From positions 2,510,761 to 2,574,760 of the forward strand of contig OZ244151.1 in NCBI GenBank assembly GCA_965216195.1: a stretch of DNA of 64,000 nt, given 5' to 3'. Positions 20,778 through 59,277 of this stretch are shown here, piece after piece. Position numbers and translations under genes: made by a program. The notes under the pieces were generated by a model. It saw nothing but the letters and a program-made list of their open reading frames with translations, was not told where the DNA came from and did not search any database. The stretch's first letter is position 1. Every line of letters starts with the position of its first letter. The stretch comes from Aridibacter sp. (GTDB taxonomy: Bacteria > Acidobacteriota > Blastocatellia > Pyrinomonadales > Pyrinomonadaceae).

Positions 20778-20829
20778 GTGGACAGTGAGCAGCTGCTTTT
20801 CTGACTACTGATCACTGACTACTGACCAC
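20778..20829. repeat. Word-repeat palindromic element in the mreB-mreC spacer
   Basis: GTGGACAGTGAGCAGC...CTGACTACTGATCACTGACTACTGACCAC. The outer arm GTGGACAGT pairs with ACTGACCAC, and CTGA(C/T)(T/C)AC words recur. Confidence 0.4.
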
Positions 20830-20833
20830 TATT

Positions 20834-21880
20834 TTAGCTACCTGTCATTAGGGAATTATCCCATTTCACACGTTTGAGGAGCTCGAAATCGGAAAGCATT
20901 TTTCCGGTTCCAAGTACAACCGACGAAAGGGGATCGTCCGATACGACAACCGGCAAACCGGTTTCAACCATCAGTCTCTTGTCGAGGTTTTTAAGTAATG
21001 CGCCGCCACCGGTTAATACTATTCCGCGCTCGACTATATCGGCCGAAAGCTCAGGGGGCGTCCTTTCAAGCGCAACTCTTACAGCGTTTATTATTGTCGA
21101 AACGGAATCAGAAAGCGCCTCGCGGATTTCTTCGTCTGTGATCGTTACGGTTTTCGGAATTCCCTCAATCAAATTTCGTCCGCGAACTTCCATAGAAAGC
21201 GGTTCTTCGAGCGGGAAACCAGACCCAAGCGCGATCTTAATCGCCTCAGCGGTTCTTTCTCCGATCAGCAAATTATATTTGCGTTTAATATACTGCGTGA
21301 TCGATTCGTCCATTTCGTTACCCGCAACCCTTACGGCACGCGAGTAAACAATTCCCGAAAGAGAAATCACAGCGATATCAGTCGTTCCACCGCCGATATC
21401 GACAACCATATTTCCGTGCGGTTCGGTAATCGGGAGCCCGGCACCAATCGCGGCCGCCATTGCCTCTTCTACTAGATAAACCTCACTTGCCTTTGCGCGA
21501 TAGGCCGAATCTTCAACGGCTCGCCGTTCAACCTGCGTAATCTCCGATGGAATCCCGATCACAACCCTCGGACGAACCCAAGATTTCCCGTTGTGGGCTT
21601 TGCGTATAAAATGCTGAAGCATTTTTTCCGTAACTTCGAAATTCGCGATCACGCCGTCTTTCATCGGACGAATCGCAACGATGTTTCCAGGTGTTCGACC
21701 AAGCATTTCCTTTGCGTCGCGACCAACGGCTTCTACCTGATTCGTTATCTTATTAATCGCAACAATTGATGGCTCACTTACGACAATTCCTCGCCCGCGC
21801 GCATAAACTAGTGTATTCGCTGTGCCAAGATCGATGGCCAGATCGCTTGAAAATAAACTAAATAGAGACTTAAATGGCAT
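20834..21880 (-). CDS. mreB: Rod shape-determining actin homologue MreB
   Basis: [20 protein letters not shown] and LTGGGALL actin-fold motifs. Confidence 0.95.
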
Positions 21881-22171
21881 TCTTCTTGATAAACTTCTGT
21901 CTAAATTTTGATAATTAATCTGTCGGTTTTTGAAACGAAAAAAAGGATGCCCGAAGCAACTTCGAGCGCCTGTTTGGGGATGACCTTCGCACCAGACAAT
22001 TAATCAATAAGCATACACCAATTTAGTAGGATTTTTCCATCAGACAAGCTTAAAAAACTATTTTATTTTAAAAAAATCACGGGGGGATTGGAATGAGGAA
22101 ACCCACAGTATCACGAGCACATTTTCAGCGTTGCAAAATCACCGAGGCAAACACCCAATTTGCTTACCTAT

Positions 22172-24965: not shown

Positions 24966-27900
24966 CTATTTTCCTAATAGATTCGTTATCGAACTCGCCG
25001 TCTCCGCCGTCTTTCTACGCACAACCTCCATCCCTTTTGTCATACCCTGAAAAACCTTCAGATTGCCCAGATCATCGAAATAGGAGTAGAAAACCGGTAC
25101 CGCCAAGAGCGTCAGCAAAAGGCAAAGCGCCTGTCCGCCAACGATCAAGACACCTACCGACCGGTTCGTTCCCGCACCCGCACCAGAGGAAAGTACGAGC
25201 GGCATCATTCCCGCAATCAAGGCAATTGTCGTCATCAAAATCGGCCGCAAACGATCACGGTTACCCTGCATGATTGCGTCGTGACGGCTTAGCCCCTTCT
25301 CTCTCAGGTTGCTGATATGGTCGATCACCAGAATCGCGTTTTTCTTAACCACTCCGAAAAGCAGGAGCAGCCCAAGCCCTGAGAAAATATTCACAGTTTG
25401 CCCGGCAATCAGGATCGAGAGAATCCCAAACGGAACGGCAATCGGAAGTGTCAACAGAATCGTAACTGGGTGGATAAACGATTCGAATTGCGCCGCCAAA
25501 ACGATGTACATGAAAATGAACGACAGAATAATCGCGAGCAAGAAATAGAACCCCGCCTTGCCGAGTTCCTTCGATTGCCCGACGTATCCAGCCTTATATC
25601 CTGGCGGAACATTGAGATCCTTAACCGCCCGATCCAAATCTGCTGTGATCGCTGTCGCCGATCCGCCCGGTCTCGTGTTGGCAAGTATTGTTACCTGCCT
25701 CTGCCGGTTGATCCGGTCGATCGCCGATGGGCCGGTTCCCTCTTTCGCTTTTACGACGTTGTCGAGAGTTACCGTTCCCAGTTTTGTCGAGGGAACGACT
25801 AGTTTCTCTAGACTTTCAATATTGCTCCTTGAATCGGTTTTCGCCCTTACGTGAACCTCGTATTGATCGGTCCCCTCGTTAAAGGTCGTCGCCTGCTGTC
25901 CTGCAACCAGGATATTCAGCGCCTGCGAAACATCGCCGACTCTTACGCCCAAATCAGCCGCCTTTTTCCGATCTACCTCGAGCTGCAACTCAGGCTTTCC
26001 GCTAATCAGCGTTGTATCTACATCGACCGCATCTTTGTTGTTTTTCAAAACCTCAACGAGTTTTTCAGAATATTTCTCAAGCTGTTTCAAATCGGGCCCG
26101 CCGATTACAAACTGAACGTTCGCGTTTCTAAAACCACCGCCCGAAAACGCCTGAACGATCTGGACCGCCGTTCTAAGATCAGGTGGATATTTCGCCAGCA
26201 GATCACGCGCCGCAGCCATCAATTCTTCCTGTGATTTCGAGCGGTCGCCGACTTCGGTTAACTTGACGTAGATAGTACCTGCATTTACAACCCTTTGCTG
26301 CCCACCGCCGACCGTAATTAGCGTGTCCGTGACTCCTTCGAGTTTGCGTATGTCGGTCGCGATTCGCTCCATCAAAACCGTCGAGGCTTGAAGCGAGGCA
26401 CCTTCCGTAGTTCTGACAGAGACTTCGAATTGCGACTCATCATCTACCGGCAAAAAGTTCTTACCGACAAACATAAACAGCGGAATGATGCTTAAAACTA
26501 CCAGCAAACAAGCCAACGCGATCACCCAACGATGGCTCATCGAAAACTCAAGCATCTTCGCGTATGTCCGGTCAATGAGCTTGTAAAAACGCCCATCCTT
26601 ACTCCCGCTTTCGACCACTGTCGCGGGTGCGGAGTTCCGAGTTTCGGGTTCAGCGCTATCTGATCCATCTTCCGCTTCCTCGTTCAAGATAAGAGTTTCT
26701 TCCGCATCAGTTTTAGTTTCATTTGTGATAGCCGCTTCGTTTTCTGATTCAGCCTTACTCAAATTGGCCCGCTGAGACTCCGCATCATCCCCGCCGCTTA
26801 TTAACGCTTTGGGTTCTGTGTCCTCTTCCAACTCTGAACCCTGAACTCCAAACTCCGAACTTTCTTCCTTCGGTTTCCATTTGATCAAACGGGCTGCCAT
26901 CATCGGCGTCAGCGTAAAAGAAACGATCAGTGAAACTCCGATCGCGAATGCCGAGGTCAGTCCAAAACTCGACATAAAACGTCCGACGATTCCGCCCATA
27001 AAACCGATCGGCACAAATACTGCCATCAGCGACAGTGTCGTTGCCAAAACTGCAAGACCTATTTCCCGTGTACCCTCAATCGCTGCTCGATAGGGCGACA
27101 TCCCCTTTTCCTCTATGAAACGATAGATGTTTTCGAGCACCACGATCGCATCGTCAACGACGATTCCGACCATCAAAGTAAGCGACAGCATAGTGATCAT
27201 GTTGAGCGTATAACCCATTACATACATTGCCGCAAATGTTGATATGATTGAAGTTGGAATAGCAATTGCCGCGATCAGAGTTGAGCGGAAATTCCAAAGA
27301 AAGAGGAAAATTACAATCGTCGCGAGAATACTTCCGATGATTAAATGCTCTTCGATTGCTTCAAGAGATGCTTCAATGTTTAGAGAATTATCACCTACTA
27401 CCTGAAGCTTATATCCCTTCGGCAGGGTCGGCTCAATCTCCTTTAGAACCTCCTTAACCTCATGAGCAACTGCGACTGTATTTTGTCCGGATTGTTTCGA
27501 AACAATTAGCGTGACAGCCGGTTTACCGTTTAAGAAAGACTGCGAACGCAATTCCTCCGTCCCATCCTCAACCGTACCAATGTCTTTTATCTTTACTTCG
27601 TAACCGCCACGATTCGCGACGATTAAATTCTCAAAATCTTCAACCTTGCGAATCTTACCCAGTGTCCGTATGTTTACTTCGCGGGCGCCTTCATCAATCC
27701 TTCCCCCGGGAAATTCTATGTTCTGAATCCGCATCGCAGCGGTTACTTCAACCGGCGTAATATTGAAGGAACGCATTTTTGCTGGATCAACCCAAACATT
27801 TATTTGTCGGTCGCGCCCGCCAACGATCTGTATCTGCCCGACACCATTTACCGATTCGATCCGTTCTTTAACTTCCTTCTTCGCAACCTCGGTTACGTTT

Positions 27901-28352
27901 TTAAGACTCGTATTTGCCGCAACCACAATTCGCAGAACGGGCGCCGCGCCTGAATCAAGCTTTAAAACCGTCGGCTGCTCTGCCGTTTCTGGAAGATTCG
28001 GAATTACGGTCTGTATCTTATTTTCAACCTCTTGCGCCGCAACATTTACGTCCTTCGAGAGTTGAAACTGAACAAACACCTGACTGATCCCTTCAATCGA
28101 AGTAGACCGCAATTCGTCTATTCCGCTAACCGTATTGGCCGCTTCCTCGATTTTCTCAGTAATCTCGGTTTCGATTTCCACAGGAGACGCTCCCGGGTTT
28201 ACGGTCGTAACCGTAATCGTCGGAAAGTCCACCTCAGGAAATAAATCTACTCCCAAAGAGAAAAACGAAAATGCCCCTACAACAACGAGTGATAAAATCA
28301 GCATCGTTGCAAAAACCGGACGCTTAACACATATTTCTGCTAACCACTGCAT
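24966..28352 (-). CDS. RND (AcrB/HAE1-type) efflux permease with a long acidic insertion in the TM6-TM7 linker
   Basis: N-terminus MQWLAEICVKRPVFATMLILSLVVVG and 12-TM RND architecture. At 1128 aa it is ~80-100 aa longer than usual, owing to the segment EESSEFGVQGSELEEDTEPK...AEPETRNSAP. Confidence 0.93.
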   Translation of the reverse strand: MQWLAEICVKRPVFATMLILSLVVVGAFSFFSLGVDLFPEVDFPTITVTTVNPGASPVEIETEITEKIEEAANTVSGIDELRSTSIEGISQVFVQFQLSKDVNVAAQEVENKIQTVIPNLPETAEQPTVLKLDSGAAPVLRIVVAANTSLKNVTEVAKKEVKERIESVNGVGQIQIVGGRDRQINVWVDPAKMRSFNITPVEVTAAMRIQNIEFPGGRIDEGAREVNIRTLGKIRKVEDFENLIVANRGGYEVKIKDIGTVEDGTEELRSQSFLNGKPAVTLIVSKQSGQNTVAVAHEVKEVLKEIEPTLPKGYKLQVVGDNSLNIEASLEAIEEHLIIGSILATIVIFLFLWNFRSTLIAAIAIPTSIISTFAAMYVMGYTLNMITMLSLTLMVGIVVDDAIVVLENIYRFIEEKGMSPYRAAIEGTREIGLAVLATTLSLMAVFVPIGFMGGIVGRFMSSFGLTSAFAIGVSLIVSFTLTPMMAARLIKWKPKEESSEFGVQGSELEEDTEPKALISGGDDAESQRANLSKAESENEAAITNETKTDAEETLILNEEAEDGSDSAEPETRNSAPATVVESGSKDGRFYKLIDRTYAKMLEFSMSHRWVIALACLLVVLSIIPLFMFVGKNFLPVDDESQFEVSVRTTEGASLQASTVLMERIATDIRKLEGVTDTLITVGGGQQRVVNAGTIYVKLTEVGDRSKSQEELMAAARDLLAKYPPDLRTAVQIVQAFSGGGFRNANVQFVIGGPDLKQLEKYSEKLVEVLKNNKDAVDVDTTLISGKPELQLEVDRKKAADLGVRVGDVSQALNILVAGQQATTFNEGTDQYEVHVRAKTDSRSNIESLEKLVVPSTKLGTVTLDNVVKAKEGTGPSAIDRINRQRQVTILANTRPGGSATAITADLDRAVKDLNVPPGYKAGYVGQSKELGKAGFYFLLAIILSFIFMYIVLAAQFESFIHPVTILLTLPIAVPFGILSILIAGQTVNIFSGLGLLLLFGVVKKNAILVIDHISNLREKGLSRHDAIMQGNRDRLRPILMTTIALIAGMMPLVLSSGAGAGTNRSVGVLIVGGQALCLLLTLLAVPVFYSYFDDLGNLKVFQGMTKGMEVVRRKTAETASSITNLLGK
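26631..26859. repeat. Intragenic, in-frame copy of the GTTCAGAG-word inverted-repeat element
   Basis: Left arm GGAGTTCCGAGTTTCGGGTTCAG (26631-26653). Right arm CTCTGAACCCTGAACTCCAAACTCCGAAC (26831-26859). These are the same words and the same inverted arrangement as the arms flanking the four-helix-bundle gene at 28360/28809. Confidence 0.55.
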
Positions 28353-28359
28353 AATTACT

Positions 28360-28395
28360 GGTGGTTCAGAGTTTAGGGTTTGGAGTTCTGAGTTC
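28360..28395. repeat. Left inverted arm of four-helix-bundle gene cassette
   Basis: GGTGGTTCAGAGTTTAGGGTTTGGAGTTCTGAGTTC. It aligns at roughly 80 percent (by eye) with the reverse complement of 28809-28850. Confidence 0.6.
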
Positions 28396-28397
28396 TT

Positions 28398-28787
28398 CTA
28401 CTTGAACTTACTTCCCTTTAAATCTGAACCTCTAAGATACTTAATAAAACCACCTAGCAAGCTGCCAATTTCACTCAGTTCTTTATAGATTTCGTCAAAC
28501 TGTTCTTGCGTTAAATAATCCTGGTCAAATGCAACATAGAGTTGCGAACGGGTTTCTGCACAAGATGCTTTAGCAATCGTCAGGAAATTAACGAACTCCC
28601 TGTTTCCTTCCCGTTCGAATCCCTCGGCAATATTCGACATGATCGAAACAGTCGAACGCCGGATTTGGTCACGCAGTGCAAAATCCCTGCTAAACTCGCC
28701 AACTTTCGTCAAAGCATAAATTTTGCCGGTCGCCGTCCGAGCAAGCTGCCAGGATTTAATGTCTTCAAATTTCTCGATCTTCGCCAT
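28398..28787 (-). CDS. Four-helix-bundle protein (23S rRNA intervening-sequence protein family)
   Basis: FEDIKSWQLAR...IRRSTVSIMSNIAEGFER...FLTIAKASCAETRSQL is the signature of this family. It sits between the MFP and RND genes. Confidence 0.88.
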   Translation of the reverse strand: MAKIEKFEDIKSWQLARTATGKIYALTKVGEFSRDFALRDQIRRSTVSIMSNIAEGFEREGNREFVNFLTIAKASCAETRSQLYVAFDQDYLTQEQFDEIYKELSEIGSLLGGFIKYLRGSDLKGSKFK

Positions 28788-28808
28788 TTTTAGCTGATAC
28801 TACTTTCT

Positions 28809-28850
28809 TGACCCTGAACCCCGAACTCTGAACCCTAAACCCGAACCCTC
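28809..28850. repeat. Right inverted arm of four-helix-bundle gene cassette
   Basis: TGACCCTGAACCCCGAACTCTGAACCCTAAACCCGAACCCTC. It abuts the MFP stop codon. Confidence 0.6.
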
Positions 28851-30178
28851 TATTGCGCCACAATAACCCCATCCCCTAACTTATCTACGTTGCTGATCGC
28901 TACAACCTCGTTTTCCTGAACGCCGAGTTTGATCTCGATCATGTCGTCTTCAAGTAGGCCCGTCTGCACAACGCGTTCATTTGCGATTCCATCTTTAACA
29001 ACAAAAACAAGATTTCGTTCACCGTCAGCCTTTACCGCTCGTGCCGGAACCATCACGGCAGACTCGGGTTGCGACTGCGTGATCCTCACAGTTGCAAACT
29101 GCCCGGGTTTAAGTAACCCGCCGACATTTTCAATCTCCGCCTCAACCGTCAATGTCCGCGACTGAGGATCGAGACTCGGGAGACTTCGCACGACGGTGCC
29201 GGCAAAATTTCTGTCCGGATACGCCGAAACCTGTGCTGAAACGCCTTGTCCTACACCGACCTTCCCGATTGATTGCTCTGGTACATCTATTTTCAAACGC
29301 AGGATCGCAGTGCGAACAATAGTCGCGATTTTCACGTTTGGCTGGTTTGGTGAAATGTACTCGCCGGGATCGGCATTTCGCTCGGAAATGTAGCCGCTGA
29401 TCGGCGCATAAATAACATTGTCGCTAACTCCCTTTTTCGCCTGATCAACCTGGGTTTGAGCTGTCGCCATTGCCGCTCTCGCATTTCCAACCTGAGTCCG
29501 CGCAGATGCAACTGCCTTTTCGGCCGCCGTTATCGCCTTCATCGCAACTGCCGCATTCGAACGCGCTTCGCTCAGCTGACCGCGCAAGGCGTCGCGCTGT
29601 GACTTTGCTTTATCGTACGCCGAGCGTGAAACATCGCCCGTCGCTAAAAGCTTTTGATAGCGGCTCAATTCCTTTTCCGCTAATTCAAGCTGCGCCTTTA
29701 CCGAGATCACCTGAGAAAAATTATTTATGTTAAACGTCTGCCCGTCTTTTACGCCAAGCCTGACCTGCGCCTGCCGCAAATTCGCGATCGCCTGGTTAAC
29801 GCCCGCTTCTGCTGTTGAGATGGCTTTCCGCTGCTGCTCCACCTGCGCACGCGCTTGTTTTAAGCGTATCTGTGCATCGCCGGCATCGAGTTGTACGAGA
29901 GCGTCACCCCTGCGAACATAGCTGCCAACGTCAAAATTGACTCGAACAACTTTCCCTCCGATAGTCGGCGCGACATTCGACTCGGCGTCGCTCGAAAGTG
30001 TTCCGGTAGCCTCCAAATACGCCGGAATTTTTTCTATCTTCGCTAAGGCGGTTTCGACGTTTACAATTTGCGATTGATCGCTTTCCTTGTTGGCGTTTTC
30101 CTCTGCTGTCGAACCCCCGCAAGCTGAAAAAGTCAAAACCACCGAAAGTAATAAAAATGTTAATTTATATAACTGCAT
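28850..30178 (-). CDS. RND efflux periplasmic adaptor (MFP/HlyD family), lipoprotein
   Basis: Lipobox LTFSACGG, a long alanine/glutamine coiled-coil hairpin, and barrel-sandwich and beta-barrel segments. Confidence 0.9.
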   Translation of the reverse strand: MQLYKLTFLLLSVVLTFSACGGSTAEENANKESDQSQIVNVETALAKIEKIPAYLEATGTLSSDAESNVAPTIGGKVVRVNFDVGSYVRRGDALVQLDAGDAQIRLKQARAQVEQQRKAISTAEAGVNQAIANLRQAQVRLGVKDGQTFNINNFSQVISVKAQLELAEKELSRYQKLLATGDVSRSAYDKAKSQRDALRGQLSEARSNAAVAMKAITAAEKAVASARTQVGNARAAMATAQTQVDQAKKGVSDNVIYAPISGYISERNADPGEYISPNQPNVKIATIVRTAILRLKIDVPEQSIGKVGVGQGVSAQVSAYPDRNFAGTVVRSLPSLDPQSRTLTVEAEIENVGGLLKPGQFATVRITQSQPESAVMVPARAVKADGERNLVFVVKDGIANERVVQTGLLEDDMIEIKLGVQENEVVAISNVDKLGDGVIVAQ

Positions 30179-33570: not shown

Positions 33571-33592
33571 TTGTGGTCTCGATCGTTGGGGG

Positions 33593-33631
33593 TAACATGC
33601 GTGCTTTGGCTAAACCTAGGCACACATGTTA
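33593..33631 (-). promoter_or_regulatory. Strong intercistronic hairpin between RRM gene and radical SAM gene
   Basis: TAACATGCGTGC pairs with GCACACATGTTA (12 positions, one mismatch) around a 15-nt loop. No U-tract follows. Confidence 0.4.
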
Positions 33632-33653
33632 AATAGGTTGAAAAATAAACCAA

Positions 33654-45883: not shown

Positions 45884-45891
45884 AAAGAAAT

Positions 45892-45921: not shown

Positions 45922-45953
45922 ATTACCAATTACCGACCGCCAACTACCAACAA

Positions 45954-46427
45954 CTACGTTGCTGTATACCAGGGAACATCGCGTCCTTTTGAATCCCAAA
46001 ACATTTCGTGAATTTTCTTCACGTTTGCCATAAGTTCTTCGGCGTGTTCGAGACTGACTTCCTGCTTGCAAGCCGAGCATAATTTTGCAGACTTCCAAAA
46101 CACCTCAACAAGGTCAGGATATTTTTCAAGGTGTCCGGGATTAAAATAATCCGTAAACAGTATTAAAAGCTCGTCCTTTGCCTGCTGCGCCTGCTCTTCT
46201 TTAATAGAAATGTAGCGAGCGAGTGTGTTTGCGTACGCCGCATTCGCCGCGTCATTGCCGCCATCGGGTTTCTTGAGATCAAGAATCTTTTTCGTCATCG
46301 AAAGCACCGCTTCCGCCGGCACCCGGGTCGATGAAGGATCGTAAACTCCGCAAGGTCCATCACAATGCGCTTCTGCAGTTTCGACAGGGGTTTTGTTTAT
46401 CAATGAATCTTTCAACTTATCCAGCAT
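45954..46427 (-). CDS. sodN: Nickel superoxide dismutase precursor
   Basis: A 20-aa propeptide precedes the Ni-hook HCDGPCGVYDP. Confidence 0.93.
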   Translation of the reverse strand: MLDKLKDSLINKTPVETAEAHCDGPCGVYDPSSTRVPAEAVLSMTKKILDLKKPDGGNDAANAAYANTLARYISIKEEQAQQAKDELLILFTDYFNPGHLEKYPDLVEVFWKSAKLCSACKQEVSLEHAEELMANVKKIHEMFWDSKGRDVPWYTAT

Positions 46428-47564: not shown

Positions 47565-47675
47565 GTAGTAGGTAGTTGGTGATAGGTAATCGGTAATTGG
47601 TAATTGGTAATTGGTAATTGGTGGTAAGAAAATCGAAATTCAAACGTTATGCAAATACCTATTACCTATTACCAT
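47565..47675. repeat. GGTAATT-word palindromic element (tandem heptamers plus inverted partner)
   Basis: GTAGTAGGTAGTTGGTGATAGGTAATC is followed by four exact GGTAATT units (47592-47619). The inverted partner is ACCTATTACCTATTACCATT (47657-47676). The left arm resembles the reverse complement of 45922-45958. Confidence 0.65.
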
Positions 47676-49118
47676 TTACGGATAAGTATAGGGCGCCTGG
47701 AGGCCGAGCGGGATTCCAAGCAGCCAGTAAATAATTAGGAAGATCACCCAGGTGACAAAGAATGCGATCGAATAAGGCAGCATTAACGAAACCACCGTAC
47801 CGATCCCCGTATCTTTCACATATTTTTGCGCGAATACTACAACCAGCGGGAAGTAAGGCATCAGCGGTGTGATGATGTTTGTCGTTGAATCCGAAACCCT
47901 GTAGGCGGCCTGGGCCAATTCTGGCGAGATGCCCAATTGCATAAGCATCGGGACAAAGATCGGCGCAAGCAAAGCCCATTTCGCGGAAGCCGAAGGCGAA
48001 GAAAATGACGTCAACTGCGGCGAAACCTGAACAGAACTCGCAGCTACAGCAGCTGCATAGGTTTTCATTTCCTCGTCACTGAATTTTGCCGCTTTAAGCG
48101 CATCTTCAAAACCTTTCTTACCAAAAATCTCGCGGTCTTTTATTGTTTCCGCCTTCTTTAAGACTTCCCGGTCAATCTCTGTCTTTCCGAGTTTCTCAAA
48201 AGACTCTTTTGTGAGACTGTAGCTGACCGGTGAACGCATCGGTGAGCTCTGCGGAATCGAAACAGCCGCCAAAATTATCAAGCCAAGCAGCAAAGTAATT
48301 ACACCAGCCCAAAGTCCGCGTTTCTCGTTTGCACCAAGCGACTCCATTTTCGGCATGTCGCTCGCATCGCCGTCAACTTCGACTCCTTTGAGCCTCGGTT
48401 CAATTATCCGGTCGGTTACATACCAGCCAACCGCTACAATCAGCACGCAGGAGGCGGACATAAAAAACCAATTGCTAAGCGGATTAACGGCCCGCGCCGG
48501 ATCAATGATCTGAGCCGCCTGCTGTGTCAGTCCCGAAATCAAAGGATCAAGGGAGTTTGGGATAAAATTCGCACTAAAGCCGCCCGAAACACCGGCGAAG
48601 GTGGCTGCGATTCCCGCAAGCGGATGTCTTCCCGCAGTGTAAAAGATCACGGCACCAAGCGGAATAACCAGTACGTATCCGGCATCGGCGGCAATATTGC
48701 TCATCACTCCAACCAAAACAAGCATTGGCGTTAATACCTTCGCAGGTGTGAAGTTGAGCAAAGCCTTAAGCGATGCATTTATGAATCCGGTGTGCTCCGC
48801 GACCCCTACTCCAAGCAGGGCGACAAGTACGACACCAAGCGGATGAAAACTTGTAAACGTCGTCACCATATTTGATAAAAATGAAGCGATAGACGTTCCG
48901 GTGAGTTGATTGTTAATGACAATCGGCTGCCCATTTCGCGGATCAATCTCGGAAAAGGTCATATTTGACAAAAACATTGACAACAGCCAGACCACAATCA
49001 TCAGAACAAAGAAAAGCACTGCCGGATCGGGCAATTTGTTACCAATCTTCTCGATCGAATTCAGTATTCTCATCATCAAAGATGAATTTGTCGCCGTTTG
49101 CTTTGTTTCTTCTGACAT
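47676..49118 (-). CDS. AbgT-family transporter with atypical hydrophilic central segment
   Basis: N-terminal LNSIEKIGNKLPDPAVLFFVL and C-terminal SASAKWALLAPIFVPMLMQLG...TNIITPLMPYFP are AbgT hallmarks. Residues ~298-377 are charged and lack TM character. Confidence 0.75.
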   Translation of the reverse strand: MSEETKQTATNSSLMMRILNSIEKIGNKLPDPAVLFFVLMIVVWLLSMFLSNMTFSEIDPRNGQPIVINNQLTGTSIASFLSNMVTTFTSFHPLGVVLVALLGVGVAEHTGFINASLKALLNFTPAKVLTPMLVLVGVMSNIAADAGYVLVIPLGAVIFYTAGRHPLAGIAATFAGVSGGFSANFIPNSLDPLISGLTQQAAQIIDPARAVNPLSNWFFMSASCVLIVAVGWYVTDRIIEPRLKGVEVDGDASDMPKMESLGANEKRGLWAGVITLLLGLIILAAVSIPQSSPMRSPVSYSLTKESFEKLGKTEIDREVLKKAETIKDREIFGKKGFEDALKAAKFSDEEMKTYAAAVAASSVQVSPQLTSFSSPSASAKWALLAPIFVPMLMQLGISPELAQAAYRVSDSTTNIITPLMPYFPLVVVFAQKYVKDTGIGTVVSLMLPYSIAFFVTWVIFLIIYWLLGIPLGLQAPYTYP

Positions 49119-49147: not shown

Positions 49148-50614
49148 TTACCTACCTGCTCCTGCCAATTCAACCGATTCACCAAAAAGTTTTTTATGAA
49201 TACCGATCGCTGCAAGCTTTCCTGCCTGTGATGCATCAACCGCTTCCGCACCGCCGTTTACACAGTCGCCGCCCGCAAAGATTGCCGGATCTGATGTCTG
49301 CATGTTTTCATTTACTTTCGCACGCCCTTTTTCGTCAAACTCGATTCCAAGTTCTGCGAGAAAACCCTTTTGCTTTTTCTGTCCAATCGCTTTGATAACC
49401 ATGTCGCAAGGTATTTCAAAGATCTCACCGGAGCCATCATTTCTTTTGCACTTCATTCCCGCGACCCGTCCCTCGCCAAAAATTTCAATCGGAAATGCCT
49501 GCCAGACGAATTCGACTCCATCACTTTTTGCAAGTTCGTATTCGTAATCATAAGCGGATATATCTTTTTCGGTTTTTCGATAAACGATCATTACCTTTTC
49601 GGCGCCGAGTCGCTTCGCCTGAGTAACCGCATCAATCGCCGTATTTCCTGCTCCAATCACCGCGACCGTCTTACCAAGCGGAACAGACTCCCAGTCGCGC
49701 GTCTTGATCTTCTCAATAAAATCCAGAGCTTCCCAAACGCCTTCGAGACATTCGCCTTCGATATTTAGATCGTTTGAGCTGCCCAGCCCAATACCAAGAA
49801 AAATTGCGTCGTGCTCAGAACGCAGGCTCTCGATGGAACACAGGCTGCCAGCCTGCACCGCGTTCTCCGAACGCGAGTTCCCGTCCACTGTTTCCCCGGA
49901 ATGAAGGCTGCCGGCCTGCAATGAGTTCGAAGAACTCGAATCTTCTTCCGCAACAATAGAAGTATTCAGCTTAAACTCCACACCAAGTTTTTCAATCATC
50001 TTCACTTCTTCAAGAGAATCCGCCTGAGTCATTTTATACTCCGCCATCCCGTAGGTGTCGAGTCCGCCAGCAAGCGGCTTTTTCTCGTAAACCGTTACAG
50101 CATAACCCAAACGTGCTAAGTAAGTTGCACAAGAAAGTCCGGCAGGACCAGAGCCGACGATCCCGATCGATTTTCCGTTTGACTCACCTTTTTCAAAAAG
50201 CTGATTGCCGTTTTCAATCGCGCAATCGGTCGCATATCTCTGCAAACGTCCGATCTCAATCGGTTTTTCAACCAAAGTTTTTTCCACACACGCACCTTCG
50301 CAAAGTGCCTCGACAGGACAAACCCTTGCACAGCTTCCGCCAATCGGATTCGCGTCAAAAATCACCCGTGCTGACCCGGTCAGATTATCGCTAGCAATTT
50401 TTTTGATAAATGAAGGAACGTCAATGTGTGTCGGACAGGCTTTAGTGCAAGGAGCGTCGTAACAATAAAGACAGCGATTCGCCTCAACCAAAGCCTCAGC
50501 CTTCGTCATTGCCGGGTTAATGTCAGCAAAATTCCTTTCGATTTTTTGTTTGCTGAATTTAGTCATGTGTCTTGAAGTTTGACAGTAAAACAGACTGTTA
50601 GTCTGTTTTCCCAT
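49148..50614 (-). CDS. preT: Dihydropyrimidine dehydrogenase PreT-like subunit (GltD-like FAD/NAD(P) oxidoreductase with N-terminal 4Fe-4S helical domain)
   Basis: CLYCYDAPCTKACPTHIDVPSFI matches the DPD domain I pattern. Dinucleotide motifs IGIVGSGPAG and VAVIGAGNTA. Genomic context is pyrimidine catabolism. Confidence 0.75.
   Translation of the reverse strand: MGKQTNSLFYCQTSRHMTKFSKQKIERNFADINPAMTKAEALVEANRCLYCYDAPCTKACPTHIDVPSFIKKIASDNLTGSARVIFDANPIGGSCARVCPVEALCEGACVEKTLVEKPIEIGRLQRYATDCAIENGNQLFEKGESNGKSIGIVGSGPAGLSCATYLARLGYAVTVYEKKPLAGGLDTYGMAEYKMTQADSLEEVKMIEKLGVEFKLNTSIVAEEDSSSSNSLQAGSLHSGETVDGNSRSENAVQAGSLCSIESLRSEHDAIFLGIGLGSSNDLNIEGECLEGVWEALDFIEKIKTRDWESVPLGKTVAVIGAGNTAIDAVTQAKRLGAEKVMIVYRKTEKDISAYDYEYELAKSDGVEFVWQAFPIEIFGEGRVAGMKCKRNDGSGEIFEIPCDMVIKAIGQKKQKGFLAELGIEFDEKGRAKVNENMQTSDPAIFAGGDCVNGGAEAVDASQAGKLAAIGIHKKLFGESVELAGAGR
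49835..49928. repeat. Two intragenic palindromic repeat cores, 63 bp apart, in frame within preT
   Basis: GGAACACAGGCTGCCAGCCTGCACCGCGTTC (49835-49865) and GGAATGAAGGCTGCCGGCCTGCAATGAGTTC (49898-49928). Core palindrome CAGGCTG-C-CAGCCTG. They are translated as VQAGSLCS and LQAGSLHS. Confidence 0.55.
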
Positions 50615-50679
50615 TCACCCGCTCCTAATTTTGCCCTTCATTTAGATGCCCAGTAAATGAACAGACTAACAGTCTGTTC
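50589..50679. repeat. Pair of REP-like hairpins
   Basis: AACAGACT-GTT-AGTCTGTT (50589-50607) and GAACAGACT-AAC-AGTCTGTTC (50659-50679). Each is preceded by CAGTAAA. The second overlaps the RidA stop codon. Confidence 0.6.
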
Positions 50680-51065
50680 TACAATTCCGCATCCGCTTCG
50701 ATCTCGATCAGCATCTTCGGATCGATCAATTTCGAAACTTCAACCATTGTAGTAGCCGGCATAATCCCACTAAAAAATTCGCCGTGCGCTTTTCCGTATT
50801 CTTCCCAACGCGAAATATCCGTTACAAACATCCGCGTCCGCACAACATTTTCAAGCGAAGCATCCAAAGCGGACAAAGCCTTTTCAATATTCTTGATTAC
50901 CTGAATCGTCTGAGTATAAGCATCGCCTTCACCAACAATCTCACCGTTTTCATCCGTCGCCGTCGTTCCGGTTACATAAATCCGCTCACCAACTTTCACC
51001 GCACGCGAATATCCAACAATCGATTCCCACTTTTGTCCCGATGAATATTTCTGTCGCTCCCGCAT
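50679..51065 (-). CDS. RidA/YjgF family enamine/imine deaminase-like protein
   Basis: 128 aa, with ...YSRAVKVGERIYVTGT... and ...ARTMVEVSKL...IEIEA, typical of the family. Confidence 0.85.
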   Translation of the reverse strand: MRERQKYSSGQKWESIVGYSRAVKVGERIYVTGTTATDENGEIVGEGDAYTQTIQVIKNIEKALSALDASLENVVRTRMFVTDISRWEEYGKAHGEFFSGIMPATTMVEVSKLIDPKMLIEIEADAEL

Positions 51066-52756: not shown

Positions 52757-52765
52757 AATTTTGTT

Positions 52766-53415
52766 GCCGCGGATTAACGCGGAGAAACGCGGATCGAAAA
52801 AAAAGAAAAGTCCGAAAGTAGTTTGAATTTCTTATTTCTTATTCGCTGATATCCATGACGGTTCTTCCTCAGTCTTCTTCTAGTAAAGGCGCCATCTTCA
52901 CCTTCGAAATCGCCCTACTTCTTTCCTGTTATTATCAAATGCAAATCTCTCAAATTCTGGTTTCCGGCCAAAATTGAACAAAAGTCCAACCTCTATTTCG
53001 GTAGCCCGCAAATAATTCAATATCTGAGCTCGATGCGCCTCTGCAATTCGTTTTACCGCTTTTAGTTCGAGTATCGCAACATTATCAATAACCAAATCCG
53101 CCTCGAAACGACCTATCTGCTGATCTCTAAACCAAACGGGAATTTCAACCTGCCGTTTAACGCCGAACCCCTTCTGATCAAGGACGATAAAAAAAGCCTT
53201 CTCGTAAACCGATTCCAAAAACCCATATCCCAGTTCATTATAAACTTCGTAGAATGTTCCAATTACCTTTTCGGTGAGGTGGAAATGCTTCAACACTTTT
53301 TTTCTCCTTTTTATTTTCTTAAGATTCTCTTCTTTCCTAAATTTCCCTCATTGTCTTTTCACTTCTATTCATTCTCCGCTTTTCTAAATCCGCGTCTTCC
53401 GCGTTAATCCGCGGC
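52766..53415. mobile_element. GxxExxY gene cassette bounded by ~28-nt inverted repeats
   Basis: GCCGCGGATTAACGCGGAGAAACGCGGAT (52766-52794) faces ATCCGCGTCTTCCGCGTTAATCCGCGGC (53388-53415). The arms share 18+6 identical nt around a 4/5-nt variable core. Confidence 0.55.
52898..53296 (-). CDS. GxxExxY protein (PD-(D/E)XK nuclease-fold family)
   Basis: GFLESVYEKA (the GxxExxY motif), then ...EADLVIDNVAILELKAV... (D..E.K core). GTG start with AAGGAG 7-8 nt upstream. Confidence 0.88.
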   Translation of the reverse strand: MLKHFHLTEKVIGTFYEVYNELGYGFLESVYEKAFFIVLDQKGFGVKRQVEIPVWFRDQQIGRFEADLVIDNVAILELKAVKRIAEAHRAQILNYLRATEIEVGLLFNFGRKPEFERFAFDNNRKEVGRFRR

Positions 53416-53423
53416 CAAACTCC

Positions 53424-54890: not shown

Positions 54891-54958
54891 AACCGCAAAG
54901 GACGCGAAGAACGCAAAGTTTATTATAGATCCTTAGCGACCGTTGCGACCTTCGCGGT
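54891..54958. repeat. Empty word-repeat palindromic element filling the NCS1-mmsA spacer
   Basis: AACCGCAAAGGACGCGAAGAACGCAAAG (54891-54918) faces CCTTAGCGACCGTTGCGACCTTCGCGGT (54931-54958). The outer 10 nt pair with one mismatch. Confidence 0.5.
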
Positions 54959-56508: not shown

Positions 56509-56650
56509 GCCGCGGATTAACGCGGAAGACGCGGATAAGAAATTGAATATGGATTATCAAATCATAAAAACGCGTTCCTAATATCTTTCAACCTCCATTT
56601 CCTCACTTTATCTCTTATAAAATCCGTTTTTCTCCACGTCTATCCGCGGC
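56509..56650. repeat. Gene-less copy of the CCGCGGATTAACGCGGA element
   Basis: 56509-56536, GCCGCGGATTAACGCGGAAGACGCGGAT, is identical to the reverse complement of 53388-53415. A degenerate partner ATCCGTTTTTCTCCACGTCTATCCGCGGC lies at 56622-56650. Confidence 0.6.
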
Positions 56651-56670: not shown

Positions 56671-56781
56671 TCAATCGCGTAGCGATTGCCTGAATTTAGC
56701 CGTGGGTTTCAACCCACTAAATATCTGACTCGCATCAATCGCGTAGCGATTACCTGAATTTAGCCGTGGGTTTCAACCCAC
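56671..56781. repeat. Two tandem 47-nt REP units (64-bp period) left of RAYT-1
   Basis: TCAATCGCGTAGCGATT(G/A)CCTGAATTTAGCCGTGGGTTTCAACCCAC occurs at 56671-56717 and 56735-56781, with one mismatch. Each unit contains two hairpins. Confidence 0.8.
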
Positions 56782-56825
56782 GGATTCTGGATCAAATCGT
56801 GCCTGTCGCGTCAGCGACAAATGAA

Positions 56826-57281
56826 TTAACCAAACATATATTTCTCACCAACAACATCTATCTCATGCAATTCCAATAAATCCGAGTATTCATCCTCAAA
56901 TGTTTTACCGTGATGATGCTCTCTCTGATTTTTAATATATTCAACTACCTTTGGCATCAAAGATTTGCTCACTGAAAACGCCGAAAATCCATCTTGCCAA
57001 GCAAATCCAGCCATTTTCGGAAACTCGTTATGAATCCATTTTGACGACTCACCTTTAATAAACTTAGCAATCTGGCTAGGTGAATACTTCGGCGGCGATA
57101 AGATCAAGGTGTGAATATGATCCTCAATTCCGCCAACTCGAATTGCGGTGCAATTATGCTTCCTCGCGATTCCGCCGATGTATGCCCAAACGCGATTTTC
57201 AATTTCTCTTTCGATCCAACGCTCACGATTCTTCGTGCTGAAAACGATGTGATTAAAACACGAAGAATATGTATTTGCCAT
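56826..57281 (-). CDS. IS200/IS605-like Y1 (HUH) transposase, REP-associated type (RAYT-1)
   Basis: HUH motif in EDHIHTLI. The IKGESSKW and YIKNQREHH segments carry the catalytic Tyr. Flanked by REP hairpins. Confidence 0.88.
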   Translation of the reverse strand: MANTYSSCFNHIVFSTKNRERWIEREIENRVWAYIGGIARKHNCTAIRVGGIEDHIHTLILSPPKYSPSQIAKFIKGESSKWIHNEFPKMAGFAWQDGFSAFSVSKSLMPKVVEYIKNQREHHHGKTFEDEYSDLLELHEIDVVGEKYMFG

Positions 57282-57293
57282 ATTTCTTCAATT

Positions 57294-57375
57294 GTCGCTA
57301 ACGCGACACGTTTGCTTGTCTACCTTGACCGTGCGTTAAAACGCACGGCTAAATTCTGTTTGTCGCTACGCGACA
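57294..57375. repeat. REP hairpins right of RAYT-1
   Basis: GTCGC-TAAC-GCGAC, then CCGTGCGTT-AA-AACGCACGG followed by GGCTAAATTC (the inverse of GAATTTAGCC on the left side), then TGTCGC-TAC-GCGACA. Confidence 0.6.
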
Positions 57376-57380: not shown

Positions 57381-57860
57381 CTATTCAACAAAATGTGTGA
57401 ATTTATCGTCTTCATCCATTCTTAGGACACCTGTTTTTAGATTAAGTGATTGAATATCATCGTGCTCACAAATGTAGGCAGGCAACCTAAAAGAATCACC
57501 ACCCGCTTTCTTCCAACACTCAAAATACCATTTGAAAATAGCGTCGATTTCAATTTGCCATGATTCATCCGACTCGAAATCCAATTTCCATTCTGGAATT
57601 TCAATTTTCTCAAGTAACCCAATGCTAGAATCTGGAAAATACCTTGGGTCATCGTGAAAGACTTCGTTATTCCCTTCGTCCATAAGAAAGATTCTTATAG
57701 GCAACTCCCCGCCTAAGCCATCATGAAAAACTTCTGCATCAATAATCTTCACTCTTGGATGAAAATTAAAATTTTGAAAACTTCTCGATTCTCTAACCAC
57801 TAAATCAGAAAGCTCTGACAGATACTTTTCAACCTCAATTTTATATTCATCATTCGTCAT
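57381..57860 (-). CDS. Acidic cytoplasmic hypothetical protein (A+T-rich orphan)
   Basis: The start ATG at 57860 overlaps the dihydropyrimidinase stop as TAATG. No motif recognised. Confidence 0.65.
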   Translation of the reverse strand: MTNDEYKIEVEKYLSELSDLVVRESRSFQNFNFHPRVKIIDAEVFHDGLGGELPIRIFLMDEGNNEVFHDDPRYFPDSSIGLLEKIEIPEWKLDFESDESWQIEIDAIFKWYFECWKKAGGDSFRLPAYICEHDDIQSLNLKTGVLRMDEDDKFTHFVE

Positions 57861-59239
57861 TAAATCTTCACGCACTCGCCTCGTTTGATAAATTGTCCGT
57901 CGCCTTGTTTGCCGATGTATTCACCTTCTTTGATGACGACATTTCCGCGAGACAGAACTGTTTCGACGACGCCTTGAACTTCGAAGCCTTCGTAGGCGTT
58001 GTAATCGACGTTCATATGGTGCGTATCAACGCTGATTATTTGGCGTTTTTCGGTGTCAAAAATCACAATGTCGGCATCCGAACCAACGGCAATCGTTCCT
58101 TTTTTTGGGAACATTCCAAACATCTTGGCGGCGGCGGTTGAAGTAATTTCGACGAAGCGGTTTAGCGAAATGCGGTTTTCATGAACTCCGCCGTTATAAA
58201 TCAAAGACATACGATTTTCCACGCCCGGAGCACCGTTTGGAATTAGCGAAAAATCATCACGCCCAAGCTCTTTTTGTTCTTTCATGCAGAAAGGACAATG
58301 GTCAGTTGAAACAACCTGCAAGTCGTCCATTTTCAGACCTTTCCAAAGTTCGGCTTGGTTGTGTTTTTCACGCAAAGCGGGTGTCATAACGTATTTTGCA
58401 CCTTCAAAATCTTCACCGTAATCTTCGATTGAAAGGAATAAATATTGCGGACAAGTTTCGGCAAATGCGGGAATTCCTCTGTCGCGGGCTTCTCGAACCT
58501 GATTTAATGCGTCGTTACAACTCAGATGGACGATATAAACGGGCGATTCAGCCATTTCGGCAATTGCAATCGCACGGTGAACGCCTTCCGCTTCGGCAAC
58601 TGTCGGGCGAGTCAAAGCGTGATATTTCGGAGCCGTTCGCCCTTCAGCTAACGCACGTTTGACGATTTCATCAATAACAATGCCGTTTTCGGCGTGCATA
58701 GCAATCAAACCACCACGTTCACCAGCGGCAGACATCGCACGAAAAATCGTTGCATCATCCGCCAGAAAAACTCCTGGATATGCCATAAAGAGTTTGAAAC
58801 TCGTGATGCCTTCATTCATCAGCGTGTGCATTTCTTCGGTGTGTTTGTCTTCAAAATCGGTCGTGATCAAATGAAATCCGTAATCAATTGCCGTTTTGCC
58901 CTCAGCCTTCTCGTGCCACTTATCGACACCGGCGATCATCGACTCACCTTTTGTCTGAACGGCGAAATCAATAATCGTAGTCGTGCCTCCATAAGCCGCG
59001 GCTCTTGTTCCAGTCCAAAAATCATCAGCAGAATGCGTTCCGCCAAACGGCAATTCCATATGCGTATGCGGATCAATCCCGCCCGGAATCACGAGTTTTC
59101 CGGCTGCGTCAATGGTTTGGTCTGCTTCCATTTCAAGCGATTTTCCGATGACCGAAACCGTTTCACCTTCAATAAAAATATCGGCGTTGTAATCATCAAC
59201 CGCCGTTACAATTCGTCCGTTTTTGATAAGTGTTTTCAT
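57860..59239 (-). CDS. hydA: Dihydropyrimidinase / D-hydantoinase
   Basis: PGGIDPHTHMELPF metal-binding motif. The amidohydrolase fold continues through ...KLFMAY... (carboxylated Lys region) and ...STDHCPF. Confidence 0.93.
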   Translation of the reverse strand: MKTLIKNGRIVTAVDDYNADIFIEGETVSVIGKSLEMEADQTIDAAGKLVIPGGIDPHTHMELPFGGTHSADDFWTGTRAAAYGGTTTIIDFAVQTKGESMIAGVDKWHEKAEGKTAIDYGFHLITTDFEDKHTEEMHTLMNEGITSFKLFMAYPGVFLADDATIFRAMSAAGERGGLIAMHAENGIVIDEIVKRALAEGRTAPKYHALTRPTVAEAEGVHRAIAIAEMAESPVYIVHLSCNDALNQVREARDRGIPAFAETCPQYLFLSIEDYGEDFEGAKYVMTPALREKHNQAELWKGLKMDDLQVVSTDHCPFCMKEQKELGRDDFSLIPNGAPGVENRMSLIYNGGVHENRISLNRFVEITSTAAAKMFGMFPKKGTIAVGSDADIVIFDTEKRQIISVDTHHMNVDYNAYEGFEVQGVVETVLSRGNVVIKEGEYIGKQGDGQFIKRGECVKI

Positions 59240-59249
59240 AGGAACTTTT

Positions 59250-59277
59250 CACCACCGAGACACAGAGGCCTCAGAGC
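59250..59277. repeat. Single word-repeat arm upstream of hydA
   Basis: CACCACCGAGACACAGAGGCCTCAGAGC ends 10 nt upstream of the hydA start. It contains the palindrome GAGGCCTC. Confidence 0.4.

Follow-up and report, generated by a model that had tools for sequence, protein, structure and literature searches.

Probable intervening-sequence-type gene cassettes and their gene-less derivatives in operon spacers of an Aridibacter genome

A stretch of 64,000 nucleotides from Aridibacter sp. (Acidobacteriota; contig OZ244151.1, positions 2,510,761 to 2,574,760), hereafter the window, carries in the spacers of its operons palindromic elements built from short repeated words, two of which enclose a small gene. 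These are probably long-lived gene cassettes of the intervening-sequence type, accompanied by gene-less derivatives, with the inverted arms serving as cis sites of the element. The descriptive part of this reading is well supported. A preliminary description of the window had gathered all the palindromes into one system of mobile or recombinogenic hairpins that could be empty, loaded with a gene, or fused in frame into a host gene. The phenomenon it recognized is real and rather general, but several classes of element were treated there as one: at least three are present, each with its own gene.

As we would divide them, class A would consist of one small gene between two inverted tandem-word arrays, lying between cistrons and pointing with the operon. 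Type A1 would carry a four-helix-bundle (23S_rRNA_IVP) gene and 7-nt words, and type A2 the gene of a GxxExxY PD-(D/E)XK nuclease and words of 9-10 nt with the core CCRCRGA and the termini TTAGCC...GGCTAA. Empty hairpins, a solo arm, and an in-frame insert in a gene for an RND permease would be gene-less derivatives of class A. Class B would comprise two Y1 transposase genes with hairpin flanks of the repetitive extragenic palindromic (REP) type, and class C small in-frame palindromes that variable loops of proteins tolerate.

Between 20 and 60 kb the window has about 46% G+C and is transcribed nearly entirely from the minus strand. Its proteins have their closest homologs among those of Pyrinomonadaceae or Acidobacteriota metagenomes. 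Elements (Table 1) were detected by an inverted-repeat scan, by Tandem Repeats Finder (TRF), and by comparing folding with that of dinucleotide shuffles (expressed as z). Orthologous operons were obtained by scanning metagenome contigs with the aldehyde dehydrogenase (Aldedh) of the pyrimidine-catabolism operon, which gave 80 loci at 69-85% identity; loci outside the window are cited by L numbers. No Rfam family, rRNA included, was found in the window at gathering scores, and a tRNA scan of the window found none. A promoter scan gave fewer sigma-70-like sites than are found in shuffled sequences, and cassette promoters cannot be judged from it.

Table 1. Features of the window: cassettes, hairpins, arrays, transposase genes, and two operons of the region
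Feature	Position	Strand	Details
Efflux operon	membrane-fusion protein (MFP) 28850-30178; AcrB-type RND permease 24966-28352	-	
Reductive pyrimidine-catabolism operon		-	dihydropyrimidinase, NCS1 permease, aldehyde dehydrogenase (Aldedh), CN-hydrolase, Rid, PreT
GxxExxY cassette, Aldedh to CN-hydrolase spacer	52757-53423	-	inverted repeat I8, 18 nt, 100% complementary
GxxExxY cassette arms	5' 53387-53415; 3' 52766-52794	-	arm type GCCGCGGATTAACGCGGAAGACGCGGAT
GxxExxY open reading frame (ORF)	52898-53296	-	132 aa, GTG start, AAGGAG leader
Empty CGCGGAT-family hairpin, just upstream of NCS1 permease start codon	56509-56650	-	I22; z = -5.65
Empty hairpin of CGCnAAGG words, NCS1 permease/Aldedh spacer	54891-54958	-	termini TTACCGCGAAGG...CTTTGCGGTTAA; z = -3.6
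Solo 3' arm of GxxExxY-type element, before dihydropyrimidinase start codon	59250-59277	-	GCTCTGAGGCCTCTGTGTCTCGGTGGTGAA
Four-helix-bundle cassette, MFP to RND spacer	28353-28849	-	inverted repeats I6, I12; TRF period 7
Four-helix-bundle cassette, 5' arm	28811-28848	-	heptamers GGTTCGG/GTTTAGG/GTTCAGA
Four-helix-bundle cassette, 3' arm	28363-28395	-	
Four-helix-bundle ORF	28398-28787	-	129 aa, 23S_rRNA_IVP family
In-frame heptamer element in RND permease gene	26630-26868; arms ~26835-26868, 26630-26653	-	
Empty heptamer hairpin of GGTAATT words, AbgT/oxidoreductase spacer	47565-47679	-	I4; TRF 7.4 copies; z = -5.5
GGTAGTT/GGTAATT heptamer array	45922-45958	-	followed by sodN intrinsic terminator 45889-45924
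CTGACYA heptamer array, intercistronic	20778-20833	-	TRF 4.3 copies
Two in-frame copies of palindrome CAGGCYGGCAGCCTG, PreT hypervariable loop	49839-49920	-	encode LQAGSL, VQAGSL
Strong hairpin of another family	50585-50682	-	I5, 23 nt, 96% complementary; z = -8.1
Y1a (IS200-like) transposase gene	56826-57281; element 56675-57373	-	I1, I2, I15
Y1b transposase gene	59428-59862; element 59316-59975	-	I3, I25

Ten sites had been listed as two-arm word elements, and six are just that. At 52766/53415, 18 nt of perfect complement enclose the GxxExxY ORF, and at 28360/28850 heptamer arms enclose the four-helix-bundle ORF. The arms at 26631/26859, in the RND permease gene, are real by the distribution of their words (see below), and the empty elements 56509/56650, 54891/54958, and 47565/47675 (GGTAATT, 7.4 copies) all fold well beyond their shuffles (Table 1). 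The other four comprise a solo arm, a pair of small palindromes, and two heptamer arrays for which no partner is convincing. The words, described as 7-8 nt long, have a period of 7 nt in three families but of about 9-10 nt in the CGCGGAT and CGCnAAGG families. The alternative states can be followed within a family: GTTCRGR words occur loaded and in frame, CGCGGAT words loaded and empty. Both cargo genes had been credited with an AAGGAG-type leader; the GxxExxY gene has one, but the four-helix-bundle gene does not.

The GxxExxY ORF matches the profiles TIGR04256 (128.6 bits) and PF13366 (134.8 bits). A search by sequence for a relative of solved structure found none. The predicted model of the protein (pLDDT 90.5) has a PD-(D/E)XK nuclease core, its best match in PDB being Cas4 SSO0001 (TM 0.58), followed by lambda-exonuclease-like proteins, and residues D67, E77, and K79 are invariant in 59 GxxExxY sequences. 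By the fold of the model and these catalytic D...(D/E)xK residues, the protein of the window is a predicted member of the PD-(D/E)XK superfamily.

Its cassette has gene-less relatives nearby. A run of 28 nt is 100% identical between the 5' arm of the cassette (53388-53415) and the start-proximal arm (56509-56536) of the empty hairpin 3 kb away, while in other genomes the third word of this stretch is different in the orthologous cassettes; identity within the window combined with divergence elsewhere suggests copying or gene conversion within the genome. Words of the CGCnAAGG type, which make up the hairpin at 54891-54958, also flank GxxExxY genes in L120 and in Sphingomonas (L220). The sequence at 59250-59277, though a real arm, does not form a two-arm hairpin (z = -0.7); a partner was sought in the window, even beyond the Y1b element, and not found. 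We read it as a solo arm because it closely matches the 3' arm (CTCTGTGACCTCTGTGTCCTCTGTGGTGAA) of a GxxExxY cassette in Bacteroides finegoldii (L219). Another locus, L140, has a comparable solo arm (CTCTGTGAAATCCGCGTCTCAGAGGTGAA), which stands 8 nt ahead of the start codon of PreT and follows nested REP-like palindromes in the Rid to PreT spacer (9433-9665). A search of the empty hairpins of the window for remnants of cargo genes found none.

The second loaded cassette sits between the MFP and RND permease genes of the efflux operon. Its ORF matches TIGR02436 (121 bits) and PF05635 (122 bits) and has relatives in PDB (2GSC, E = 7e-11, and 2RLD). Its two arms pair, with a cofold energy of -45.9 kcal/mol. 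The gene occupies the same spacer in the relatives L202 and L204 (63-68% identity), and a third homolog separates mreC from mreD in a Chloracidobacterium metagenome-assembled genome (MAG). Among these orthologous cassettes the heptamers (GGTTCAG-type, GTTCAAA, GTCCAAA/GTCTAAG, GTTCCGA) and their copy numbers differ, while pairing within each locus is kept.

The in-frame element in the neighboring RND permease gene belongs to the word family of this cassette, as judged from the words themselves. There are 17 occurrences of GTTYNGRGTT in the window, where 2.7 would be expected, and its only clusters are at 26634-41 (+), 26839-60 (-), 28364-85 (+), and 28826-40 (-), that is, in the RND element and the cassette arms. 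Relative to its orthologs in L202 and L204, the permease has about 65 extra acidic, low-complexity residues in its central cytoplasmic linker. The heptamer arms bound this extra segment. The ACR_tran profile match to the permease falls into two stretches. No remnant of a four-helix-bundle gene was found between the arms.

That the elements are insertions, as had been supposed, is evident from the spacer between Aldedh and CN-hydrolase in orthologous operons, which ranges from bare through unrelated hairpins to the GxxExxY cassette. Four loci have a bare spacer of 13-38 nt with no hairpin. Elsewhere the spacer holds a REP-like GAGTTCCAGCTTTAGCTGGC type, GATTTTA heptamers, ACACGAAG words, or, once, an empty CGCGGAT hairpin; in L120 it holds a Y1 gene, and in many loci an ordinary gene of 360 aa. 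Eight loci have a GxxExxY gene with CGCGGAT-type arms, arranged as arm-gene-arm, as full hairpin-gene-arm, or with a full hairpin on both sides (orthologous cassettes are found in L121, L124, L140, L149, L195, and L198). Depending on the lineage, GxxExxY genes with arms are also found elsewhere in this operon: ahead of the permease gene, ahead of the dehydrogenase gene, in the spacer that separates CN-hydrolase from PreT, or downstream of PreT. Five different spacers of one operon are thus occupied, again as expected of insertions.

The insertions are not new. The GxxExxY copies at the Aldedh to CN-hydrolase site form a single clade, yet on the Aldedh tree their hosts are interspersed with lineages without the gene. 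This indicates that a single old insertion was inherited vertically and lost repeatedly. The idea of a mobile element therefore holds insofar as the elements are inserted, but the two loaded cassettes of the window are old residents, found at the same positions in relatives, rather than recent arrivals.

The layout extends well beyond Acidobacteriota. With regard to anatomy and SIGNIFICANCE, the inverted repeats flanking cargo genes are stronger than those of a comparison set of 600 further genes in these loci (median score 12 vs 7, the 99th percentile of the latter being 11; Mann-Whitney p = 1.3e-7). The layout is found with either cargo family in Cyanobacteria, Bacteroidota, Proteobacteria, and Spirochaetes. 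The GxxExxY proteins that are 57-66% identical to that of the window are accompanied by the words CGCGGAT or CGCAGAT, and those 31-45% identical by CACAGAT, CACGAAG, CACATAGA, CACAGAGGA, CGCGAAGG, or CACGGAT. Their arms share the core CCRCRGA and the termini TT(A/C)(A/G)CC..., and these are found also in plasmid or chromid records of Bacteroides, Bernardetia, Sphingomonas, and Treponema. Four-helix-bundle genes are flanked by inverted arrays of words of about 7 nt in records of Nostoc, Leptolyngbya, Geminocystis, Picosynechococcus, and Riemerella, the words being of unrelated sequence (e.g., GGGAAAA, GGTTTAAG, GGAGATAA, GGAGAGG).

Cargo genes consistently point with their neighbors. This is so for all eight four-helix-bundle loci of cyanobacterial and Riemerella plasmids and all six GxxExxY loci (from five phyla) with annotated neighbors, and for every one of the approximately 21 independent cargo-gene sites counted. 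The operons entered include cas6-X-cas4, cas10-X-cmr3, parA-X-parB, fabD-X-fabG, mreC-X-mreD, and radA-X, where X is the cargo gene.

Gene-less copies outnumber loaded ones. An exact 17-mer of the GxxExxY-type arm, CCGCGGATTAACGCGGA, occurs in MAGs of Acidobacteriota, Planctomycetota, Verrucomicrobiota, Chloroflexota, Gemmatimonadota, Proteobacteria, and Treponema, often in several copies per MAG and as inverted pairs, usually with nnACGCGGAT as the following word. The raw count, at least 119 loci, is near the approximately 70 expected by chance, so only the clustering by taxon, the multiple matches per MAG, and the inverted pairs are informative. A GxxExxY gene is present in 5 of the 119 loci, within the stretch fetched. 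In a Sedimenticola MAG, four "empty" hairpins of about 190 nt at several loci have in common an extra outer inverted repeat and a loop encoding the last 30 or so codons of a GxxExxY gene (E from 1e-6 to 2e-3). They represent a deletion derivative that multiplied, and gene-less copies can thus derive from loaded ones. At L009 (6960-7060) a CGCGGAT half-element lies within the loop of an outer hairpin of GGATTGC heptamers, and this looks like nested insertion of one word element in another.

Both the gene and the arms of type A2 are constrained. The GxxExxY gene is under purifying selection, with dN/dS of 0.07-0.15 in those pairs that still allow synonymous divergence to be estimated. Over its first 28 nt the arm is 79-89% identical in 6 of 10 pairs of orthologous cassettes, as compared with 43-54% identity at four-fold sites of the adjacent Aldedh gene. 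The remaining four pairs all involve L149, and their low arm identity (39-46%) is due to a 1-nt indel in the L149 arm. Comparison of the aligned sequences shows the type A2 arm to be conserved far beyond neutral sites. Among 65 distinct hairpins, the arms also covary: there are 100 double changes, as against 55 +/- 6 in shuffles, and none of 500 shuffles reaches the observed number. The covariation includes flank columns that were not used in picking the hairpins (TTAG/CTAA, TTTG/CAAA, TTGG/CCAA, TCAG/CTGA).

Perhaps such arrays are only by-products of replication, tandem repeats expanding by slippage, inverted by template switching, and neutral in spacers. Word copy number does differ between arms and between orthologs, as heptamer number varies among Coxiella strains, and the arrays at 20778-20829 and 45922-45958 have no partner. 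It would not readily account for the recurrence of the same 17-mer and termini across phyla, several per genome, nor for arms far more conserved than four-fold sites, nor for the tight association with two particular gene families, nor for consistent orientation and position. We regard slippage as the least credible of the explanations considered here.

Several observations weigh against the reading of the elements as cassettes with cis-acting arms, or at least temper it. Copy counts in the source genome cover only the window. There is no sign of recent movement of its two cassettes, and neither a target-site duplication nor a clean empty/filled junction could be defined; no duplication can be read because the flanks outside the arms are themselves complementary and covary. 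Inverted arrays are clear in about 6 of 8 four-helix-bundle plasmid loci, L210 and L212 being without a clear partner arm, and in L215 (Fusobacteria) and L217 (Gemmatirosa) the arrays flank the GxxExxY gene as direct rather than inverted repeats, which may reflect tandem full hairpins or some other arrangement. (The L217 arrays consist of CTTCAGTCC words and repeated ACACGTACGTGGAGCC.) Word type could correspond to protein clade simply because words and gene are inherited together as a linked unit, and the covariation of arms could come from template-switch repair of quasi-palindromes, without selection. We know of no activity for either cargo protein, and neither is a recognized transposase. 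Finally, tests of strand asymmetry gave no support to a model in which the sense RNA is the functional form: in 34 oriented hairpins, G.U mismatches number 53 and A.C mismatches 46 (p = 0.55), a stricter subset gives 17 and 15 (non-significant), and folding energies do not differ between sense and antisense (p = 0.24).

With neither mismatches nor energies asymmetric, nothing points to selection on the structure of the sense transcript in particular. Both strands seem to be constrained alike, and in the GxxExxY type the constraint is specific to the sequence. This bears on a different possibility, that the hairpins are RNA elements selected by the host, intercistronic sites for stabilizing or processing mRNA like the REP/BIME sequences of enterobacteria, which serve differential expression, and that small genes landed in their loops by chance. 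Hairpins lie almost exclusively downstream of stop codons (24 flanked by co-directional genes, 9 by convergent genes, and 1 by divergent genes), they have strong fold z-scores and co-varying pairs, and they occur in many operons, essential ones included, all of which one might expect of such elements. But besides the symmetry of the strands, it is arm sequence and not just pairing that is conserved across phyla; the type of word tracks the cargo (7 nt with four-helix-bundle genes, the CCRCRGA core with GxxExxY genes); bare orthologous spacers work without a hairpin; and the empties of Sedimenticola hold gene remnants, so that there the gene came first. We consider selection by the host for an RNA element unlikely. 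Irrespective of these tests, in all word hairpins of the window and the L loci the 5' arm is G-rich, whichever strand is read (418 paired G vs 173 C), which places a purine-rich stretch before the cargo gene and a pyrimidine-rich stretch before the next host gene.

The proximity of arms to start codons had led to another proposal, that the element targets sites precisely 9-10 nt upstream of start codons or acts in the 5' leader in initiation independent of Shine-Dalgarno sequences. In four genes of the window an arm does end 9-10 nt before ATG, with an A/T-rich spacer as described, and in both the window and L140 solo 3' arms adjoin start codons. Among 16 empty hairpins that lie between co-directional genes, however, the distance from arm to start ranges from 3 to 65 nt (9-17 nt in 8 of the 16), and that from stop codon to hairpin from 0 to 54 nt. 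Since native spacers are only 13-38 nt long, any tolerated insert is squeezed between a stop codon and a short leader and will end near ATG. The last bases before ATG are alike with and without an insert in orthologous Aldedh to CN-hydrolase spacers and look like the native leader, kept. Nor is the missing Shine-Dalgarno sequence a special pattern: a 4-mer core is present in only 19 of 51 genes of the window, 63% lacking it in any case, and four genes without one would be met with a probability of about 0.16. Nine hairpins, moreover, lie between convergent genes, with no start codon nearby. A specific target or role at start codons is therefore highly unlikely.

Two genes for Y1 transposases had been overlooked, together with the strongest hairpin of the region (50585-50682). 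Y1a is flanked by inverted REP-type units of 45 nt (56739-56783 and 57329-57373), with an extra tandem unit at 56675-56717, and Y1b by 34-nt inverted flanks with three nested small hairpins per side, in inverted order. Both proteins match PF01797 (102.5 bits for Y1a and 102.2 for Y1b). Y1a scores 80.7 with NF033573 (cut-off 55) and 20 with REP_Tyr_transpos, Y1b 37 with the latter (cut-off 80). The REP core of Y1a is found also in L036, L057, and L106. In L140, the closest relative, the Aldedh to CN-hydrolase spacer (6440-6700) holds a gene-less doublet of the REP that flanks Y1a. The two genes are probably ordinary members or near-members of the IS200/RAYT world.

Y1 enzymes (those of IS200/IS605 and the REP-associated RAYTs) act on DNA hairpins, and one might suppose that the word hairpins are REPINs of the Y1 enzymes nearby, moved as single-stranded DNA, with the cargo genes as passengers. 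Such a supposition would suit the presence of two Y1 genes in the same operon region and of a third in the Aldedh to CN-hydrolase spacer of L120, and the symmetry of mismatches would fit a constraint at the level of DNA. Each Y1 gene, however, has its own, quite different hairpins, and it is those that recur as gene-less doublets (L140). Apart from the neighboring empty hairpin at 56509-56650, no word array lies next to a Y1 gene. The genes inside word arms are those of GxxExxY or four-helix-bundle proteins, with word type correlating with cargo family, and cassettes occur in plasmid and MAG loci with no Y1 gene in view (within short fetched stretches). We think it quite unlikely that the Y1 enzymes are responsible for the word hairpins.

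The closest known system is the 23S rRNA intervening sequence, followed by REPIN/RAYT. The ORF-bearing intervening sequence of Coxiella burnetii and Leptospira is regarded as a selfish insert that the host tolerates (PMC4990558). That of Coxiella has a 28-bp terminal stem that is cut by RNase III, an S23p ORF in the loop, and GACAGAT heptamers whose number varies between strains (PMC4990558). The four-helix-bundle cassettes resemble it in having a terminal inverted-repeat stem around one four-helix-bundle gene, co-oriented within a transcribed unit, and tandem heptamers in variable number in their arms. They differ in location, lying between protein-coding cistrons (MFP to RND, mreC to mreD, cas operons) rather than in helix 25 or 45 of 23S rRNA, and their gene is intact and kept at this position in relatives, unlike the decaying, probably untranslated ORF of Coxiella. 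A second cargo family, GxxExxY, with an arm type of its own, is also without counterpart in the intervening sequence, and cutting by RNase III is known only from the rRNA precedent. Literature searches on GxxExxY, PF13366, TIGR04256, 23S_rRNA_IVP, and the cyanobacterial short tandemly repeated repetitive (STRR) sequences yielded no description of such cassettes outside rRNA genes. The statement that the system has no formal description stands to that extent, but the four-helix-bundle version has the architecture of the ORF-bearing intervening sequence, heptamers included (PMC4990558).

As with REPINs and RAYTs, many gene-less palindromes are found in extragenic space downstream of genes, while the nuclease gene, with these repeats inverted on either side, is present in few copies, and the association is long-lived and vertically inherited, the repeat family following the enzyme clade. 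In the word hairpins, though, the genes encode a PD-(D/E)XK nuclease or a four-helix bundle and not an HUH Y1 transposase, and the arms are tandem-word arrays of 25-60 nt, not single palindromes of 20-40 nt. It is the Y1 genes of the window and their REP-type flanks that would fit the REPIN-RAYT pattern, but the proteins score as IS200 and fall below the cut-off of the RAYT model. Miniature inverted-repeat transposable elements such as Correia elements and ERIC share terminal inverted repeats, short gene-less copies drawn from a longer gene-bearing form, folding as RNA, and residence in transcribed spacers. The word elements differ from them in encoding no recognized transposase, the parent carrying instead a gene of about 130 aa for a nuclease or helical bundle. 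Like Rickettsia palindromic elements, the in-frame palindromes add a tolerated peptide in a surface or linker region (the RND linker, the PreT loop), but there is no sequence relationship, and the families found here are mostly in spacers, with one that carries a gene. STRRs have been described as dispersed repeats of unknown role. They too are tandem heptamer arrays in intergenic DNA, and cyanobacterial plasmid loci show them on both sides of four-helix-bundle genes; no description of STRRs as paired inverted arms around a gene was found in the literature.

How might such cassettes work? The arms may act as the cis sites of the element. In type A2, the nuclease would recognize its own word arrays, either in DNA or on both strands, and might copy, home, or homogenize them, by analogy with a RAYT and its REPINs. 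Type A1 and the ORF-bearing 23S rRNA intervening sequence may be one kind of element. By that precedent, the A1 arms would pair in the operon transcript as a long stem that insulates the insert and is probably cut by RNase III, and such cutting would make insertion between cistrons harmless. For the host, the result would be a stable intercistronic stem-loop.

One could go further and suppose that GxxExxY proteins are the enzymes of an unrecognized class of palindromic elements that crosses phyla: a minimal PD-(D/E)XK nuclease that recognizes its own 9-10-nt words (CCRCRGA) and spreads or homogenizes gene-less hairpins in operon spacers, REPIN-RAYT-like but of another fold. The four-helix-bundle/heptamer cassettes, 23S rRNA intervening sequences and STRR arrays among them, would be a parallel class. 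This broader proposal is tentative, and we think it less likely than not.

The cassettes join three loose ends: the ORF-bearing 23S rRNA intervening sequences, the large families of "four helix bundle" and "GxxExxY" paralogs, and intergenic tandem heptamers. They also provide a testable idea of the substrate of GxxExxY nucleases, namely their own flanking word arrays. There is a warning here for annotators of cas, fab, mre, par, and efflux operons that hold these small genes. Since the cargo genes are inserts, their presence in an operon should not be taken as evidence that they share its function. Four-helix-bundle genes found in cas operons were taken in an earlier study to be cas-associated (PMC3936711); the present results suggest that they are inserts. 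Copies in frame indicate that the elements also add peptide segments to proteins.

The second gene with in-frame copies, PreT, contains a different, smaller kind of element than the word arrays. The site at 49835-49928 does have palindromes in frame, as had been noticed, but not a word element: there are two direct copies of a 15-nt palindrome (z = -1.2). L140 has one copy of CAGGCYGGCAGCCTG in the same loop, while many other orthologs have there an unrelated REP-like hairpin, TCAGAACCGCCYGCGTYAGCGGGYGG, read as SEPPA(L/S)AGG. Comparison with orthologs supports the view that the in-frame copies in RND and PreT are lineage-specific additions in variable loops. Upstream lies the hairpin at 50585-50682, each arm of which is palindromic in its own right (AACAGACTnnnAGTCTGTT), so that a pair of local hairpins could form in place of the long one. 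Against the idea that this hairpin encloses the start of PreT speak the N-termini of orthologs, which start at the Met corresponding to residue 17 of the longest ORF in the window. The true start is probably at 50566, 16 codons downstream, and the hairpin would then be intercistronic, in the Rid to PreT spacer.

Of the heptamer elements without cargo, the 5' arm of the hairpin at 47565-47679 overlaps the AbgT stop codon. The two arrays taken for hairpins are real as arrays only: GGTAGTT/GGTAATT at 45922-45958 folds poorly alone (z = -0.7), and CTGACYA (4.3 copies) at 20778-20829 has a weak partner (z = -1.4). A scan for intrinsic terminators flagged no word hairpin on the coding (-) strand, where only the sodN terminator (45889-45924) qualifies; its matches within hairpins are limited to a small local stem on the opposite strand (54942-54958) and the hairpin flanking Y1b. 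The 3' arms of word hairpins are followed by AACAAAATT and similar sequences. The gene sodN itself (nickel superoxide dismutase, 45954-46427), whose terminator has a clear 14-bp stem, is among the few genes here with a strong AAGGAG site. A strong non-word hairpin (33571-33653, z = -4.8), with a perfect 12-bp stem (ACAUGUGUGCCU.../...AGCACGCAUGU), lies just downstream of a gene for an RRM-type RNA-binding protein (33654-33932) and upstream of the gene at 32014-33570. Lastly, in the Aldedh to CN-hydrolase spacer of L124 and L125 (1888-4681 in L124) a pair of genes of 99 and 214 aa stands upstream of the GxxExxY cassette, and from its sequence this looks like a toxin-antitoxin pair of the AbiEi/AbiEii type.

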